A DNA stretch of 16,584 bases, taken from Candidatus Heimdallarchaeota archaeon (GTDB lineage Archaea > Asgardarchaeota > Heimdallarchaeia > Hodarchaeales > Hodarchaeaceae). Positions 1,853 through 8,790 of this stretch are shown here, one piece after another. Position numbers and translations under genes: made by a program. The DNA is taken from the NCBI GenBank assembly GCA_011364965.1, contig RDOB01000013.1:1-16584 (forward strand), read 5' to 3'. The notes beneath the pieces are model-generated. The model made no database searches. It was given only the letters and a program-made list of their open reading frames with translations, and was not told the origin of the DNA. The first letter of the stretch is position 1. The number at the start of each line of letters is the position of its first letter.

Positions 1853-3562
1853 TCACTTTCTAAATACCAATATACTTTGATGTACAACACTTGGTATATA
1901 GGAAAAAGGATATCCAAAAATATGTAGGGCTTTATCAGGTGCGTACCAGATTAATTCATGTTGGAACTGATATCCAATTTCTACCAGAGTTCTTGCTAGA
2001 CTAGTGGTAAGGAGAAGATATTGCCCTTTTTTTGGGGACATTTTCTTATCTGGAATTGTCATCGTACGATACATATTCCCAATAAAAACAATTAAATACT
2101 TTTGAGGAGTTAATTTTGCATAACACGCCATAAATACCTCTTTTAACAATTCTAACCATACCTCCAAAGTTGGAATTTCTGTTTCGTTGAATTTACTTAA
2201 TGAGGAATGGAGTTTGTCTCGTGAGGGTTCTCCAGCTCTAGAAAATTTTCCCCGAGTTTTTTCCAATTTATCCATAGCCCAATATGGTACATCTGTCAAA
2301 ATAAGATCAATACTGCTATCAGGTATTTTTTCTGGGATCAAATTTCTTGAATCTCCAACAAAAAAGGGATAAACAGGAAGATCAAATTCTTTTGATACAT
2401 TTTCATAGATCATTTTCCATTCTTTGTTAATATCGATTCCAACTGCATCTTTATTAGCAAGTGCAGCACCTATTAACGTACCTCCAACCCCAGCAAAGGG
2501 ATCAAGAATTTTTATTCCTTCTTCTGGACAATAAATCTCGATTAATAACTGAGTTAACTCGGGAGGTTTCATTCCTCCGTGTTGACGTCTTAATGCATGA
2601 TTATATGAGGGAGGATAAGATTTGTGGATAATTAGAGAACTTCCTACTAATAAGGGAGAAATGATGGCAGAATCAATCAGAAAACTTGTTGAAGAACCTT
2701 TGAGTTCTTTTCGAAAAACCAAGATTCGTCGTTCAATTGGAATTAATTCAGTATGAATTGAATTAGGAGCTGGCTGAAACCAAATTCTCTCTGATTTTAG
2801 CGTTAAGCCATAAACAGACAATATATTGGTAATTAAACCAGTTAGAAAAAAATTTATTGAGCTTGTTCTGGTGAATTGGGAGGATTCTGAACTCAGAAAC
2901 TCGAAATTACCTGGAAGAGAAAGGATGAGGTATTTTTCCATCTTAAGTTTAACAAAAATCTCTTTAAGCAAGTGGACAACCATATTAAGCCAATTTAAAA
3001 TTTTTTTTTCAGGGTCGGTCATGATATCGGTATAATTGAGGCAAAATGAGTTTTGAGAATTTTTATTTGTCGGATTCCAGACAGGAAAATCTGTAATGAC
3101 AAGATCTATGGACTCTGGGGGGATTGAAGAATGTTCTGAGAACTTTAAAAGAGAGATGCTACTTTCAGGTTTAAGGTGTAAATCACTCATGATTTTAGTG
3201 AATTGCACGAAAAATTCTTCCTGCAATTCCAAACCAATAATATTTCTCCTTGGGGGAGGGATATAAGCATTTGCAAATAAAGCTCCGATAAGAAAAGATC
3301 CAGCTCCGAAAAAAGGATCCAAAACTGTTTCTTTTGGTTTGGAAAATGTCTCTACAAGTTCTGTGCAAAGCTGTACAGGGATCGGAGAAAGATTTCTCGT
3401 GATTATATTTTCTCCAAGTATATCGGGATAAGATTTGGGAATAACTGTCTTAGTTGAAAATAACCATTCTTTACCAGTCAAATCATTTAAGGGATTTCTC
3501 TTATCATAAACCCCTCTGTCTTTCCTGTCTTCTTGGTAGTCCTTTAATTCAAATCTTGTCAA
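1853..3562 (-). CDS. Tandem two-domain SAM-dependent amino-methyltransferase (DNA N4-C/N6-A or Trm11-like)
   Basis: Two repeats of KSYP...P..L...L.E...LDPFxGxG followed by DL(V/I)(I/L)TD(F/V)P(V/Y)W and a W(F/Y)xP...(R/S)ILVFRK end. TTG start with an in-frame stop just upstream. Confidence 0.8.
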   Translation of the reverse strand: MTRFELKDYQEDRKDRGVYDKRNPLNDLTGKEWLFSTKTVIPKSYPDILGENIITRNLSPIPVQLCTELVETFSKPKETVLDPFFGAGSFLIGALFANAYIPPPRRNIIGLELQEEFFVQFTKIMSDLHLKPESSISLLKFSEHSSIPPESIDLVITDFPVWNPTNKNSQNSFCLNYTDIMTDPEKKILNWLNMVVHLLKEIFVKLKMEKYLILSLPGNFEFLSSESSQFTRTSSINFFLTGLITNILSVYGLTLKSERIWFQPAPNSIHTELIPIERRILVFRKELKGSSTSFLIDSAIISPLLVGSSLIIHKSYPPSYNHALRRQHGGMKPPELTQLLIEIYCPEEGIKILDPFAGVGGTLIGAALANKDAVGIDINKEWKMIYENVSKEFDLPVYPFFVGDSRNLIPEKIPDSSIDLILTDVPYWAMDKLEKTRGKFSRAGEPSRDKLHSSLSKFNETEIPTLEVWLELLKEVFMACYAKLTPQKYLIVFIGNMYRTMTIPDKKMSPKKGQYLLLTTSLARTLVEIGYQFQHELIWYAPDKALHIFGYPFSYIPSVVHQSILVFRK

Positions 3563-4033: not shown

Positions 4034-5257
4034 ATGCAAGATCATTTTATATTTCGAGAGGCAACAGACCAGGATGCTCAATCAATCAAAAATATCATGA
4101 GATACGCGTTTGAAGGGCATAAAAACCAATATGAAGACCCTGAAAAACCAGATCCTCGCCGAGATTTAACCCATACTTACCCCACAAAAAATTATGTTAT
4201 CGAAGAAAATGGATCCATTGCTGCAAACCTTGGAGTAATTCAATTTCAAGAGCAAATTCGGGGGACTTTTATAAAAATGGCTGGAATTACAGGTGTAGCA
4301 TGTAAACCAGAATATCGACGCTCAGGGTACATGAAACAATTATTTGAATATGTTTTTAAGCTGCTTTATGAGCAAGAATATCTCGTATCAACCTTATATC
4401 CATTTAAATTTGAATTCTATGAGGGATTAGGGTATGGACAGATGGATTCCTTGCACGTTTTTACATTAAAAACCTCTGATATTATCCAAAAGCCAACTCC
4501 TAATCGGATAATTCAAGAAGACTTTGATCCAAATTATAAGCGCTGCCAACCTCTTTATGATATAATTGCTTCTCAATTAGATGGCTTAGCAAAAAGAGAA
4601 TCTTTTATTTGGAAATCTATGCCTGGTTGGACATGGAGAAATCAAGGATATCAGTTTATTTGTCAGGATAAGAATGGGAAAGATTTGGGGTATATTATAC
4701 TTCGGTTTGAGAAAGCAGATGAAAAGAATCCTTTCCCACATATCTTGGTTCGAGAAATGGTGTACTTTGATTCAGAAACTAAACAAGCATTCCTAAATTT
4801 TCTTGCAAATCATGATTCTCAGAGAGAGTTTGTTAAACTAGCCCCATTTGAACATAATATCCTACCATATCTAAGAACACCCCGGATGAAGGAAAATAGG
4901 ATTCAAGATAACTCAATGTTTCGTATAATAAACCTCAATGAGTTATTATTAAGATTAAACTATCCAAATGACGTAAATGAGATGATTACATTTCAAGTGA
5001 CTGATCCTGCAAGTCAGTGCCCCTGGAATAATAAGACGTTAACATTAAAGGTGGAAAATGGAAAGGGTCAAATTGTTACGTCCTCTAATCGCTATCCAAT
5101 AAAAATTGGAATAAAGGAATTGAGTCAGATAGTCATCGGTTTTTATGATCCCTTTGAGTTATTCGAAGCAGGACTTATTTCAGGTGAGAAACATGCGTTT
5201 TCAGCGTTAGGCCAGATCTTCCCTAAGCAAAATACTGCCTTAAGAGAATATTTTTAG
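4034..5257 (+). CDS. Eis-family (enhanced intracellular survival) GNAT acetyltransferase
   Basis: 407 aa; GITGVACKPEYRRSG acetyl-CoA motif, STLYPF..FYEGLGY, SCP2-like C-terminal region, terminal EYF. Confidence 0.88.
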   Translation: MQDHFIFREATDQDAQSIKNIMRYAFEGHKNQYEDPEKPDPRRDLTHTYPTKNYVIEENGSIAANLGVIQFQEQIRGTFIKMAGITGVACKPEYRRSGYMKQLFEYVFKLLYEQEYLVSTLYPFKFEFYEGLGYGQMDSLHVFTLKTSDIIQKPTPNRIIQEDFDPNYKRCQPLYDIIASQLDGLAKRESFIWKSMPGWTWRNQGYQFICQDKNGKDLGYIILRFEKADEKNPFPHILVREMVYFDSETKQAFLNFLANHDSQREFVKLAPFEHNILPYLRTPRMKENRIQDNSMFRIINLNELLLRLNYPNDVNEMITFQVTDPASQCPWNNKTLTLKVENGKGQIVTSSNRYPIKIGIKELSQIVIGFYDPFELFEAGLISGEKHAFSALGQIFPKQNTALREYF

Positions 5258-5326: not shown

Positions 5327-5362
5327 TCCCTTGGCCGTGATTTGAACACGGGACAACTCGGT

Positions 5363-5419
5363 CGCCGCTCATTATTGCTGACACACTCATCACTGTTTCC
5401 TCAGAGGTGCGAACTAGGT
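5363..5419 (-). other. tRNA intron 2, canonical position 37/38, 57 nt
   Basis: Central helix C32-T-G-T35 / GCGG (two G-U pairs), bulges AG|A and CG|A, outer helix CTCGG/CCGAG. The inner helix is weak (relaxed BHL type). Confidence 0.88.
5377..5412 (-). ncRNA. Intron-embedded C/D-type K-turn (K-loop) hairpin; candidate H/ACA-like guide domain
   Basis: Box D CTGA (5404-5401), G-GAAA-C cap, AGT bulge and perfect box C GTGATGA (5393-5387) on stem GCAC-CTC/GAG-(T)-GTGT. The K-turn is directly visible; guide function is inference. Confidence 0.55.
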
Positions 5420-5425
5420 CTACAG

Positions 5426-5475
5426 CCGAGGGCTCTTGGAGGCTTGGATTTATAATCCGAGGGCTCTTCCAGGCT
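5426..5475 (-). repeat. 19-nt imperfect direct repeat (17/19 identical, 12-nt perfect core), period 31
   Basis: AGCCTGGAAGAGCCCTCGG (5475-5457) versus AGCCTCCAAGAGCCCTCGG (5444-5426). Confidence 0.95.
5435..5465 (-). other. tRNA intron 1, non-canonical position 22/23, 31 nt
   Basis: BHB-like motif: central helix TGGA/TCCA, each strand followed by an AG|A bulge and closed by single G-C pairs; internal hairpin GGATT-ATA-AATCC. Removal restores the D-stem. Among the registers allowed by the direct repeat, this is the only one I found that gives a 4-bp central helix. Confidence 0.8.
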
Positions 5476-5505
5476 GAGCTACCAAGGGAATTATTGCATT
5501 AAAGT

Positions 5506-5718: not shown

Positions 5719-7011
5719 ATGGATTATTCAAACCTTAAAGTCTTCCTTTATTGGGATAAATATACGTGGTATGCATTAGGGGCATTATCGGCTAGCTTAC
5801 AAAAACATCAAATTCCCTATGAAGTTATCAAGGGAAATGTCAAGCAACCTATCTCTAAAGCATTGAATACGGATTATAGAGTAATTTACGCAGAATCATC
5901 GCGTAGCTGGACCATTGAAGCATTGAAAAATCGCCTTAAAATAATTAAGAAGGCATTTACTTCTGCTGATATCTTAGTTGTAGTTGGGGGACCTCATGCA
6001 ACAGGAGTACCAGAGGAGATTTTAAACATGGGAGGCGATGTAGTAGTAATAGGAGAAGGAGAGGAGACTTTTCCACATCTAGTTAAAACATTTGCCCAAA
6101 AACCAATAACAAATGGTGATTTGGAAACAATCCCTGGAATTGCTTATTTAGATCAATATAAAACTGTACAAAGAACCAAGCGTCGCCCCAGTATTGATTT
6201 GGATTCCTATTGTCCTTATTCTGATAATCCAAAATTTTCAATCCATCCTCCCATTGAACTCATGAGAGGGTGCGCATTTCGATGTCGGTTCTGTCAAGTT
6301 CCTTATATGTATGGTAATCCTCGTTTTCGCTCAATAAAAAATATTGAAACCATTGTTAAGCATTATATCAATCATTTTAAGCCAATAAAGAAAACTGTTG
6401 ACATTCGGTTCATTGCACCTAACTCCCTAGGTTATATGGAGAAAAAAAGGGGAATTCCAAATGTATCCCGACTTAAGGAATTAATCGATTGTCTAACTCA
6501 ATATGATATTCGTCTTTTTTTTGGAACCTTTCCTTCAGAGGTTCGGCCTGAATATATTACTGAAGAGACGATTTCTCTCTTTGAAAAAATTAGTAATAAT
6601 TCAATTTCAATCGGTTTTCAAAGTGGATCAGACAATATTTTAACCAATATGAGACGCGAGCACACCGTACAAGATGGTTTAGCCGCGTTTGAAATTATGA
6701 AATCACATGGATATCTTCCTGTTTTTGATTTCATCCTAGGGACTCCTTCCGAAACTTTAAGCGCACAATGGGAGACCCTAGATCTTGTTCGGCAGTTTCA
6801 GGGAAAAGCACTTGTTCGATTACATTATTTTATGCCACTTCCAGGTACCCCCTGGCAGGATCTGATTCCTGTCCCTCTTAGTTCAGAAATTTTAACAGAA
6901 ATCGGACGTCTTGCCAAAGCTAAGATTATTACAGGAGAGTTCGTCAAACAGATGAATCAAATAGAAAAACTTCTTGAGTCTCGAAATCCTCAAGTCTTGA
7001 GTAATTCTTGA
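5719..7011 (+). CDS. B12-binding domain/radical SAM protein (resembles TIGR04013, MJ_1487 family)
   Basis: VVVGGPHAT...DVVVIGEGE cobalamin-binding-domain motifs; CAFRCRFC (CxxxCxxC); RFIAPNSLGY and FFGTFPSEVRPE, which I recall as family motifs. Confidence 0.85.
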   Translation: MDYSNLKVFLYWDKYTWYALGALSASLQKHQIPYEVIKGNVKQPISKALNTDYRVIYAESSRSWTIEALKNRLKIIKKAFTSADILVVVGGPHATGVPEEILNMGGDVVVIGEGEETFPHLVKTFAQKPITNGDLETIPGIAYLDQYKTVQRTKRRPSIDLDSYCPYSDNPKFSIHPPIELMRGCAFRCRFCQVPYMYGNPRFRSIKNIETIVKHYINHFKPIKKTVDIRFIAPNSLGYMEKKRGIPNVSRLKELIDCLTQYDIRLFFGTFPSEVRPEYITEETISLFEKISNNSISIGFQSGSDNILTNMRREHTVQDGLAAFEIMKSHGYLPVFDFILGTPSETLSAQWETLDLVRQFQGKALVRLHYFMPLPGTPWQDLIPVPLSSEILTEIGRLAKAKIITGEFVKQMNQIEKLLESRNPQVLSNS

Positions 7012-7080: not shown

Positions 7081-8790
7081 ATGTTATTTCTTGATTTCTG
7101 TCTAGTAATGGAACAAATTCAAGCTACCACGAAGAAAAACGAGAAAGTTGAGCTTTTTGCGAATTTTCTTCGTCAACTTATTGATAAAGAACTCCCCCTT
7201 GTATGTTATTATGCCTCAGGAAGAGCATTTTCAAAAATATCTCCTTTAAAAATCCAAATGGGATGGAGCTCTTGTCAAGCAGTTGTAAACAAGCTAACAA
7301 AATACACTCGTTCTGAATTATCTTCTTTTTACAGAAAAAATTCTGATTTTGGAAGCATGGTTGAATTTGCATTAAATAAACGGAAACCTCAAGCACAACC
7401 ACTTGAAAGTTATTTCAGCGTAACCAAACAAGAACCCAAACTTACAATTCTTATGTTAAATGAATTTTTCACTGAAATCGCTACAATTTCAGGAAAAAGA
7501 GCAATTGAAACAAAGAAAAATCGCCTACTCTCTTTTCTTCAACTTACTTCCCCTTTAGAGGCCAAATATGTAACCCGAATAATTACCTCTGATACCCGAA
7601 CAGGCTTTCGGGAAGGATTGGTTCTAGACTCAATCGTGAAAGCGTTTAACCGAGAGAAAGAAGAGGTAGAATATGCTCATATGATACTAAGCGACATAGG
7701 GAAAACAGCAGTAAGGGCAAAAGACTCAAAAATTAACTTATTCGCTCTTAAGCCTGAACTCTTCAATCCATTGAAATCTATGCTGGCAACGAAGGTTGAA
7801 ACTATTTCAAAAGCTCTTGAAGCTTTTCCTTTGTTGATTTGTGAACCAAAAATTGATGGATTCCGTGCCCAACTACACATTTCTAAAAAAGAGTGTAAGC
7901 TTTATTCCCGGAATCAGGAGGATATCACTCAAGGTTTTCCTGAAATTATTGATGATGTTTCTATTCAAGTTAGACATGATTATCAGAATACAATTATTGA
8001 TGGCGAAGTAGTTGCTATTGTAGATGGAAAGCCAGTTTTTTTCCAGGATTTGCTTACACGAGTTTTACGTAAACAAGAGGTGGAAGAGTCTATTTTAAAA
8101 ACTCCCTGCTATTTCTATATGTTCGATATAACCCTATCCAAAGGGGAGTCTCTTTTAAATAAACCTCTTCTAGACAGAAAAAAAGCATTAAATACAATTC
8201 CAACCTTAAAGCATTTAGAGATTATTAGGTACAAATTACTATCAGATGAAACCGAAATAAAAAACTTCTTTCAACAAATGATAAAACGGGGGTTCGAAGG
8301 ACTTATGCTAAAAGATCCACACTCTAAATACCTGGCAGGTAAACGAGGTAAAAACTGGTTGAAGTTAAAAACCTCACTTCCCACCTTAGATCTTGTCATA
8401 ATTGCTGCGGAGTGGGGACATGGACGACGGACTGGATGGTTATCTAATTATCATCTCGCTGCAAGAGATAAGAATAATTATCAGGTTATTGGAAAAACGT
8501 TCAAGGGTTTGACTGATAGTGAATTTCAATACCTAACAGATCTATTAAATTCAATAAAAACCAGCTCAAAATCTTGGGGGATCGCTGTTAAACCTCAGGT
8601 TGTTGTAGAAGTTGAATTTGACAATATTCAGCAATCATCCAAATATGAATCTGGGATGGCACTTCGATTTGCTCGGATTAAACGAATTCGACCTGATAAG
8701 TCTGTGGAGGAAATTGACACAATTAAGAGTGTCCAACAGCTATATGAAAACCAGTTAGAAAGACAAGAACGTTCTAAACAAAGCCAATGA
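7081..8790 (+). CDS. lig: ATP-dependent DNA ligase (archaeal Lig1 type)
   Basis: Motif I EPKIDGFR, III IIDGEVV, IIIa FYMFDI, IV EGLMLK, V WLKLK, VI LRFARIKRIRPDK. N-terminal DNA-binding domain has a PIP-like loop QAQPLESYF. Confidence 0.97.
   Translation: MLFLDFCLVMEQIQATTKKNEKVELFANFLRQLIDKELPLVCYYASGRAFSKISPLKIQMGWSSCQAVVNKLTKYTRSELSSFYRKNSDFGSMVEFALNKRKPQAQPLESYFSVTKQEPKLTILMLNEFFTEIATISGKRAIETKKNRLLSFLQLTSPLEAKYVTRIITSDTRTGFREGLVLDSIVKAFNREKEEVEYAHMILSDIGKTAVRAKDSKINLFALKPELFNPLKSMLATKVETISKALEAFPLLICEPKIDGFRAQLHISKKECKLYSRNQEDITQGFPEIIDDVSIQVRHDYQNTIIDGEVVAIVDGKPVFFQDLLTRVLRKQEVEESILKTPCYFYMFDITLSKGESLLNKPLLDRKKALNTIPTLKHLEIIRYKLLSDETEIKNFFQQMIKRGFEGLMLKDPHSKYLAGKRGKNWLKLKTSLPTLDLVIIAAEWGHGRRTGWLSNYHLAARDKNNYQVIGKTFKGLTDSEFQYLTDLLNSIKTSSKSWGIAVKPQVVVEVEFDNIQQSSKYESGMALRFARIKRIRPDKSVEEIDTIKSVQQLYENQLERQERSKQSQ

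Follow-up and report, generated by a model that had tools for sequence, protein, structure and literature searches.

The intron at position 37/38 of the tRNA-Tyr gene in a genome of the Heimdallarchaeia contains a hairpin that ends in a kink-turn (K-turn) or kink-loop (K-loop) of the type recognised by L7Ae, and this element is, as judged by comparison of sequences, conserved across two archaeal phyla. The intron probably helps either to modify its own tRNA, through the formation of pseudouridine 35 (Psi35), or to time the processing of that tRNA before the intron is excised. The preferred explanation, which is put forward tentatively and falls somewhat short of an even chance, is that the intron could act as an L7Ae-bound, cis-acting Psi35 module. 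The observations on which this is built, namely the gene, the motif and its conservation, the covariation of two hairpins (H1 and H2), the fixed length of the H2 stem and the presence of the protein genes, were all obtained by computation.

Psi35 of tRNA-Tyr has so far been credited to Pus7 or to trans-acting H/ACA RNAs, and the only guide module so far known in an archaeal tRNA intron is the box C/D RNA of tRNA-Trp. A K-turn module within the tRNA-Tyr intron of the Heimdallarchaeia, of other Asgard classes and of DPANN would represent a second, and different, case. A search of the full-text literature on K-turns and L7Ae in tRNA introns, on Psi35 guides and on Asgard tRNA introns returned no description of a K-turn in the intron of tRNA-Tyr. 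A 2024 review lists the C/D intron of tRNA-Trp as the sole embedded guide, and a 2026 preprint on Asgard tRNA introns mentions neither Tyr, nor the K-turn, nor L7Ae.

The tRNA-Tyr gene and its introns

The window, by which is meant the whole stretch of DNA that was analysed (16,584 nucleotides of contig RDOB01000013.1, from Candidatus Heimdallarchaeota archaeon), holds a tRNA-Tyr(GUA) gene that is interrupted twice (Table 1). Removal in silico of a 31-nt and a 57-nt intron leaves a cloverleaf that ARAGORN calls as tRNA-Tyr(gta), and the earlier note on this DNA, which had placed a K-turn within a tRNA-Tyr intron, was thus correct about the host gene. In its unspliced form the gene is missed both by ARAGORN in default mode and by Rfam at the gathering threshold, and matches to it in Rfam at E values up to 10 are at chance level only. 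The assembly (2.97 Mb, 35% GC, 87% complete) has no other Tyr gene when it is searched genome-wide by ARAGORN with introns allowed. Orthologous introns at 37/38 range in length from 42 to 67 nt.

Table 1. Features of the tRNA-Tyr gene, its introns and the elements within the second intron; positions are those of the window
Feature	Positions	Strand	Basis
tRNA-Tyr(GUA) gene, two introns	5327-5488	minus	in-silico splicing gives a cloverleaf called tRNA-Tyr(gta) by ARAGORN
Intron 1, 31 nt, somewhere within this range	5426-5468	minus	repeat period of 31
Intron 2, 57 nt, canonical 37/38 position	5363-5419	minus	orthologous introns at the same position
Anticodon loop G31-G37; U35 = 5422, A36 = 5421	5420-5426	minus	sequence
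Hairpin H1: G37 (5420) pairs with an invariant C (5411); 2 bp here	5411-5420	minus	covariation, RNAalifold
Hairpin H2: 7-bp stem, one bulged U on the 3' strand, K-loop cap	5381-5410	minus	covarying stem
K-loop core: 5' C-U-G-A (5401-5404), loop, 3' R-U-G-A-U-G (5388-5393)	5388-5404	minus	GA and UGA invariant
CAGC, complement of G31-C32-U33-G34, site of a would-be 3' guide	5377-5380	minus	directly 3' of H2
AUGA, the "degenerate D box" of the earlier note	5369-5372	minus	absent from same-genus orthologous introns
GCGG (5365-5368), pairs with C32-U35 to give the 4-bp central helix of the bulge-helix-bulge; C-G-A38 (5362-5364), 3' bulge	5362-5368	minus	helix 96% paired in orthologues

A conserved kink-turn hairpin

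The reverse complement of 5385-5406 parses as CUGA (5401-5404), G-GAAA-C, AGU and GAUG (5388-5391), exactly as had been read before, and the pairing given for it is likewise confirmed. The possible pairs are a C-G pair, U5403.U5389 at the 3n.3b position, and the two sheared pairs G5402.A5390 and A5401.G5391. The helix continues past the stretch that had previously been described, and it is this continuation that produces the 7-bp stem with its one bulged U.

How much weight can be placed on such a hairpin when it is seen in one sequence? A loose K-loop pattern, consisting of at least 7 bp followed by NGA, a loop of 3-14 nt and RUGAN, occurs 301 times when both strands of the 2.97-Mb genome are taken together, so that a single copy alone is weak evidence. 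The expectation for this loose pattern is ~0.3% per 57-nt stretch, and the z-score for the fold of the whole precursor is just -0.8. It is conservation, rather than the single occurrence, that can be regarded as decisive for the reality of the motif.

Orthologous tRNA-Tyr genes of the same genus and class were aligned, and a covariance model was then run on wider groups. The model finds the element in 60 of the 83 Heimdallarchaeia genomes, spread over 12 of 18 genera and with one copy per genome, together with further copies in other Asgard classes. A pattern scan of prokaryotic genomes returned 96 matches, which include about 30 Asgard copies, about 60 chance matches in bacteria (the number expected from the information content of the pattern) and two tRNA-Tyr introns from outside Asgard, one of which belongs to a Woesearchaeota genome. 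The variants found in the DPANN phylum to which the Woesearchaeota match belongs had been missed by the first covariance model; once the model was rebuilt from a wider alignment the element was found in 44 of 151 sampled genomes of this phylum. All 14 of the DPANN copies that were inspected are tRNA-Tyr introns at 37/38 and carry the kink.

Within this collection, an alignment of 62 orthologous introns shows no variation in the GA and UGA columns, which answers the proposal of the earlier note that conservation of the two GA elements be checked in orthologues. Conservation of the letters that define the K-turn is confined to N-G-A and R-U-G-A-N. The 3n.3b position varies freely across the orthologues, and it is likewise variable in known K-turns. 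The H2 stem is 98.9% paired, with both partners changed in 6 of 14 pairs, a result that was matched by none of 500 shuffles. Moreover, in nearly all of the 67 distinct orthologues the stem is exactly 7 bp in length (plus the 3n.3b position), with or without one bulge on the 3' side, and such a fixed length would fit a molecular ruler set between the kink and the junction below it.

Other letters of the sequence are not retained. Neither the G-GAAA-C cap, nor the complete GUGAUGA box, nor the AUGA at 5369-5372 is conserved, and on this comparison all three are local accidents. In the Heimdall set R-U stands before the 3' GA, U being the usual base at L3 of a K-turn, and the loop is 5-9 nt long; within the genus the cap is a plain loop, and the element there is thus a K-loop. 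The introns of other Asgard classes and of DPANN have a true C-stem and a 3-nt bulge where the loop would be, and so form a full K-turn of the textbook kind. The description of the element as a consensus C/D K-turn with a GAAA cap is therefore upheld for the K-turn pairs, with their invariant GA and UGA, and not for the C/D type or for the GNRA cap, which is found in this lineage only. The associated prediction of an L7Ae-type K-turn and an L7Ae RNP has fared better, given strong purifying selection that falls exactly on the K-turn-defining bases, a covarying stem and the presence of an L7Ae gene. Comparison of the introns thus supports the hairpin as a genuine L7Ae-type K-turn/K-loop, to which L7Ae would be predicted to bind.

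The junction with the anticodon loop

Below the K-turn stem the intron can pair with the anticodon loop in two ways. One of these involves H1, which is weak in the present sequence, extends to 3-4 bp in most relatives and is absent from several DPANN introns. H1 averages 2.86 nested bp over 44 distinct segments, whereas shuffling of the interiors gives 1.56 +/- 0.12. The second position of H1 is occupied by UA in 18 segments, AU in 15, GC in 8, and CG, GU and AG in one each, such that 43 of the 44 have UA, AU, GC, CG or GU at this position, and RNAalifold gives the same H1 pairs. The invariant C of H1 lies just 5' of the K-turn stem, so that H1 abuts the stem.

On the other side of H2 the tetramer that follows the hairpin is CAGC in 45 cases, UAGU in 8, CAGU in 7, UAGC in 2, UGGC in 1, CAAC in 2 and AGCC in 1 (one shifted parse), and every one of these except CAAC can pair with GCUG. 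Since G31-G34 is invariant, pairing with CAGC shows compatibility rather than covariation. When H1 and the CAGC pairing are combined into what may be called the pocket fold, U35 and A36 alone are left unpaired, and they come to lie exactly at the foot of the K-turn stem.

The second mode of pairing generates the splicing motif. The central helix is 96% paired across the orthologues, varying between GCGG, GCAG and ACAG, and the 3' bulge holds the 3' splice site, between C-G and A38. Both the central helix and the 3' bulge of the bulge-helix-bulge motif are canonical; at the 5' splice site, which is part of a three-way junction, there is no adjoining outer helix, and the motif is for this reason of the relaxed kind. 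The CAGC pairing and the GCGG pairing are mutually exclusive, and in the pocket fold the 5' splice site is contained within H1. In the shortest introns the two complements of the anticodon overlap as one CAGCAG. The nearest-neighbour energies calculated for the present sequence are -13.6 kcal/mol for the splicing fold versus -7.8 to -9.4 kcal/mol for the pocket fold, so that in the naked RNA the splicing fold is favoured and the pocket fold does not have the lowest energy.

A possible Psi35 module acting in cis

What, then, might be the role of a kink held at a constant distance from the anticodon loop? The union of a K-turn hairpin of fixed length with a 3' segment and a free U35 and A36 corresponds to the lower-stem-less layout known from S. 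islandicus, and this correspondence favours a module that acts in cis. In its most specific form, which is held more guardedly still, the proposal is that the tRNA-Tyr intron of Asgard and DPANN may be a self-targeting module of the H/ACA type, devoid of a lower stem, that would make Psi35 on its own precursor. The intron has the layout of an atypical H/ACA-like RNA in that it has no lower stem or ACA, CAGC faces G31-G34, G37 pairs with C, and U35 and A36 are free, although the pairing here indicates compatibility only.

In the proposed pathway the kink would initially be bound by L7Ae. The Cbf5-Nop10-Gar1 complex would then dock on the stem and convert U35 to pseudouridine, with the K-loop held exactly 7 bp plus 3n.3b above a junction that is made with the anticodon loop of the tRNA itself. 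Subsequently the RNA would refold, allowing the distal GCGG to pair with C32-U35, after which the bulge-helix-bulge would form and the intron would be excised. In this scheme L7Ae binding, the action of Cbf5, Psi35 formation and the refolding are all steps that we infer.

There are precedents for the individual elements. In the Sulfolobales, H/ACA RNAs acting in trans guide Psi35 formation on pre-tRNA-Tyr by pairing across both the anticodon loop and the intron (PMC2651775). H/ACA RNAs of S. islandicus that are without a lower stem or an ACA are active, one of them through a 3' guide only, and two of the S. islandicus RNAs are themselves substrates, in which a uridine of the 5' flank is modified by Cbf5 once the 3' guide has formed 2-4 bp (PMC11077068). 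This last geometry, with the target in the RNA's own 5' flank, would seem to be the one that is seen in the tRNA-Tyr intron. The proteins of Pyrococcus are also able to work with atypical guides (PMC11077068). In classic H/ACA RNAs the kink is located 5-6 positions above the pocket (PMC2651775, PMC7991803), compared with 7 bp plus 3n.3b in the intron, a comparison in which the counting conventions may differ. The cis-module is weakened by the near-universal presence of Pus7, by the energetic preference for the splicing fold, by the weakness or absence of H1 in some introns and by the invariance of its partner in the exon.

Some of the same features lend themselves to a structural interpretation, which we regard as unlikely, in which the element serves as a clamp or splicing timer. 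L7Ae bound at the kink would in this case delay or license cleavage by the endonuclease, or else aid folding at the relaxed 5' site, with no catalysis directed by the intron. Such a function would make sense of two folds that exclude each other, one of which has the 5' splice site within H1, and of the minimal introns in which both anticodon complements are merged as one CAGCAG. It also agrees with the behaviour of human intronic K-loop RNAs, which are reported to be bound by 15.5K, a homologue of L7Ae, and to suppress excision of the host intron (preprint 10.64898/2026.08.03.742641), and with the co-occurrence of Pus7 and the intron, through which a guide is not strictly needed. However, a clamp has no obvious need for a stem of exactly 7 bp, or for a tetramer by which U35 is positioned precisely at the stem base. 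Furthermore, neither model matched the intron of any other tRNA, although this is a weak test because both models include the Tyr anticodon arm.

Protein partners and the question of Pus7

The genome encodes L7Ae, Cbf5 and Nop10, and Gar1 is present as a weak match. A Pus7/TruD gene is present in 80 of 83 genomes within the class and, among the 44 DPANN genomes with the intron, in 43; across these two sets no anticorrelation was found between Pus7 and the intron. As the usual Psi35 enzyme co-occurs with the intron, the module does not replace a missing enzyme. S. islandicus, though, keeps a Pus7 that acts on U13 and not on U35 (PMC11077068), and the co-occurrence of Pus7 therefore weakens the cis-guide model without killing it.

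The near universality of Pus7 wherever the intron occurs leads to a further explanation, which is distinctly doubtful, whereby the fold of the intron would present U35 within UGUAG to Pus7 for an intron-dependent formation of Psi35 similar to that of yeast and plants, with L7Ae merely stiffening the RNA. To our knowledge no Pus7 substrate requires a kink-turn, and this counts against such a scaffold. The sequence G31-G37 does match the Pus7 consensus quoted in PMC2651775, and Psi35 formation in eukaryotes is intron-dependent (PMC2651775, PMC11408192), but the Pus7 of P. abyssi modifies a tRNA-Tyr that is without an intron (PMC2651775) and the S. islandicus enzyme, as noted above, works at U13 rather than at U35 (PMC11077068).

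A separate observation concerns the Pus7/TruD gene of the present assembly. The sole copy (C12:327478-328777; L241 179-1478) is split into overlapping frames of 241 and 200 aa, where the relatives have a single frame of ~400 aa, for which a frameshift and an error of assembly are the two possible causes. Were the split real, the organism would be without a stand-alone Psi13/Psi35 enzyme. In one other genome, G011, only short TruD pieces were returned by the search.

Readings as a guide or RNP acting in trans

The hairpin could, in principle, exert its function after excision, with the linear or circular intron persisting as a stable L7Ae RNP that acts in trans; it might guide the modification of another RNA in the atypical H/ACA manner, or serve as a sponge for protein. 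Small archaeal RNAs are known to gain stability from a K-turn. Archaeal tRNA introns do circularise (PMC7994747), and a stable 57-nt circle had been proposed in the earlier note. This outcome is nevertheless quite improbable, as the sequence of the 5' flank varies freely and keeps only its own hairpin, CAGC, which is the sole conserved single-stranded element, matches the anticodon loop of the host itself, and a perfect match to the longer flanks is found nowhere else in the genome.

A classic H/ACA RNA was considered and rejected. In the classic archaeal form a lower stem is followed by ACA at 14-16 nt from the target uridine; in the intron both ACA and a conserved lower stem are missing, and the stem is followed by a spacer that varies between 0 and ~25 nt. 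A genome scan for the classic architecture (lower stem, pocket, K-loop stem and ACA at 13-16 nt) gave 10 raw matches at 6 places, which are AT-rich and unconvincing, and provided no comparator for the length of the stem.

Finally, the C'/D' pair of a box C/D methylation guide, suggested in the earlier note as an alternative, is very improbable because its two putative guides are the two strands of one covarying stem, terminal C and D boxes are absent, and neither AUGA nor the box letters beyond GA and UGA are conserved. In this one sequence CUGA and GUGAUGA do fit the box consensus, and the tRNA-Trp intron of the Euryarchaeota is itself a C/D guide (PMC7994747); the match to Rfam snoR130, at 13.6 bits against a threshold of 40 bits, is at chance level. 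The AUGA that had been proposed as a degenerate D box is missing from orthologues of the same genus. Two reservations made alongside that suggestion, that there is no terminal C box and that the putative guides pair with each other, both hold, and the stem so formed covaries. The search for targets of these guides that had been advised gave no second perfect match to the guide complements in the genome, and the matches with one mismatch lie outside RNA genes. The assembly has no match to SSU rRNA and contains only the last ~250 positions of LSU rRNA (C12:515019-515329), so that any rRNA-target search in this genome is incomplete.

Relation to known systems

The systems closest to the proposed cis-acting module are the atypical H/ACA guides, which include sR109, sR136, sR148 and sR563 of S. 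islandicus and examples from Pyrobaculum. These also consist of a single K-turn hairpin with short flanking guides and without a lower stem or ACA, and in those of S. islandicus the 3' guide begins directly at the base of the stem (PMC11077068). In contrast to the tRNA-Tyr element, which is intronic and would be aimed at its own host, they are stand-alone small RNAs that mostly serve rRNA. The helix corresponding to their 5' guide is, in the intron, a covalently closed hairpin, and the association with Cbf5 and the formation of Psi35 are here predictions made from sequence.

Classic H/ACA sRNAs such as Sso1 and sR115, of the Sulfolobales and Aeropyrum, share the proposed target, U35 of an intron-containing precursor (PMC2651775, PMC11077068), as well as pairing across the anticodon loop and intron and a K-turn in the upper stem. 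They are found, however, where Pus7 is defective at U35, whereas the tRNA-Tyr element is in cis and exists alongside Pus7. In Haloferax and other Euryarchaeota the 37/38 intron of tRNA-Trp carries an L7Ae-binding box C/D guide that acts on the anticodon loop of its own tRNA (PMC7994747, PMC11408192), features that the tRNA-Tyr element would share if its putative L7Ae binding and target are correct. The tRNA-Trp RNA differs in having the full set of terminal and internal C/D boxes, along with guides of 10-12 nt for 2'-O-methylation, whereas the tRNA-Tyr intron has one kink only and the sequences adjoining it form a stem. The human intronic K-loop RNAs (10.64898/2026.08.03.742641) share the intronic K-loop; theirs is bound by 15.5K and acts on the fate of the host intron. 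Unlike the tRNA-Tyr element, they reside in spliceosomal pre-mRNA introns, have terminal C/D motifs and have no link to tRNA or to base modification.

The element offers a concrete reason for the retention of the tRNA-Tyr intron, and it would provide a simple substrate for the study of minimal H/ACA-type recognition or of L7Ae-controlled splicing. Among the Heimdallarchaeia are the nearest archaeal relatives of eukaryotes so far known. A cis-guide, if confirmed, would connect the near-universal intron of tRNA-Tyr, the intron-dependent Psi35 of eukaryotes and the origin of intron-encoded guide RNAs within the archaeal relatives of eukaryotes.

Other features of the locus

The neighbouring genes in the window (1853-3562 (-), 4034-5257, 5719-7011, 7081-8790 (+)) are ordinary, and no functional link to the tRNA was seen among them. 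Their products are a DNA methylase, a GNAT acetyltransferase with an SCP2 domain, a B12-binding radical SAM protein and an ATP-dependent DNA ligase.

The first intron of the tRNA-Tyr gene is separate from the K-turn module, and its exact splice register is ambiguous owing to a 12-nt direct repeat that flanks it. This repeat-flanked 31-nt intron is absent from the relatives inspected within the genus, a few of which have a different insertion in the D-arm (L005, L007, L008), and it has the appearance of an intron gained recently through tandem duplication. Three relatives (L003, L004 and L009, from genomes G012, G009 and G008, respectively) have an extra insertion in the T-loop of tRNA-Tyr. The intron content of the gene thus changes fast within the genus, while the K-loop intron at 37/38 is always retained.

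One further genome contains a degenerate second copy, L083 (G014:C279:5669-5742), which lies ~1.1 kb from the real tRNA-Tyr of that genome and comprises the 5' half of the anticodon arm together with the K-loop of the intron. As bases of its anticodon stem have changed and the matching 3' exon is absent, this copy was probably left behind as a pseudogene fragment when the region was duplicated locally.
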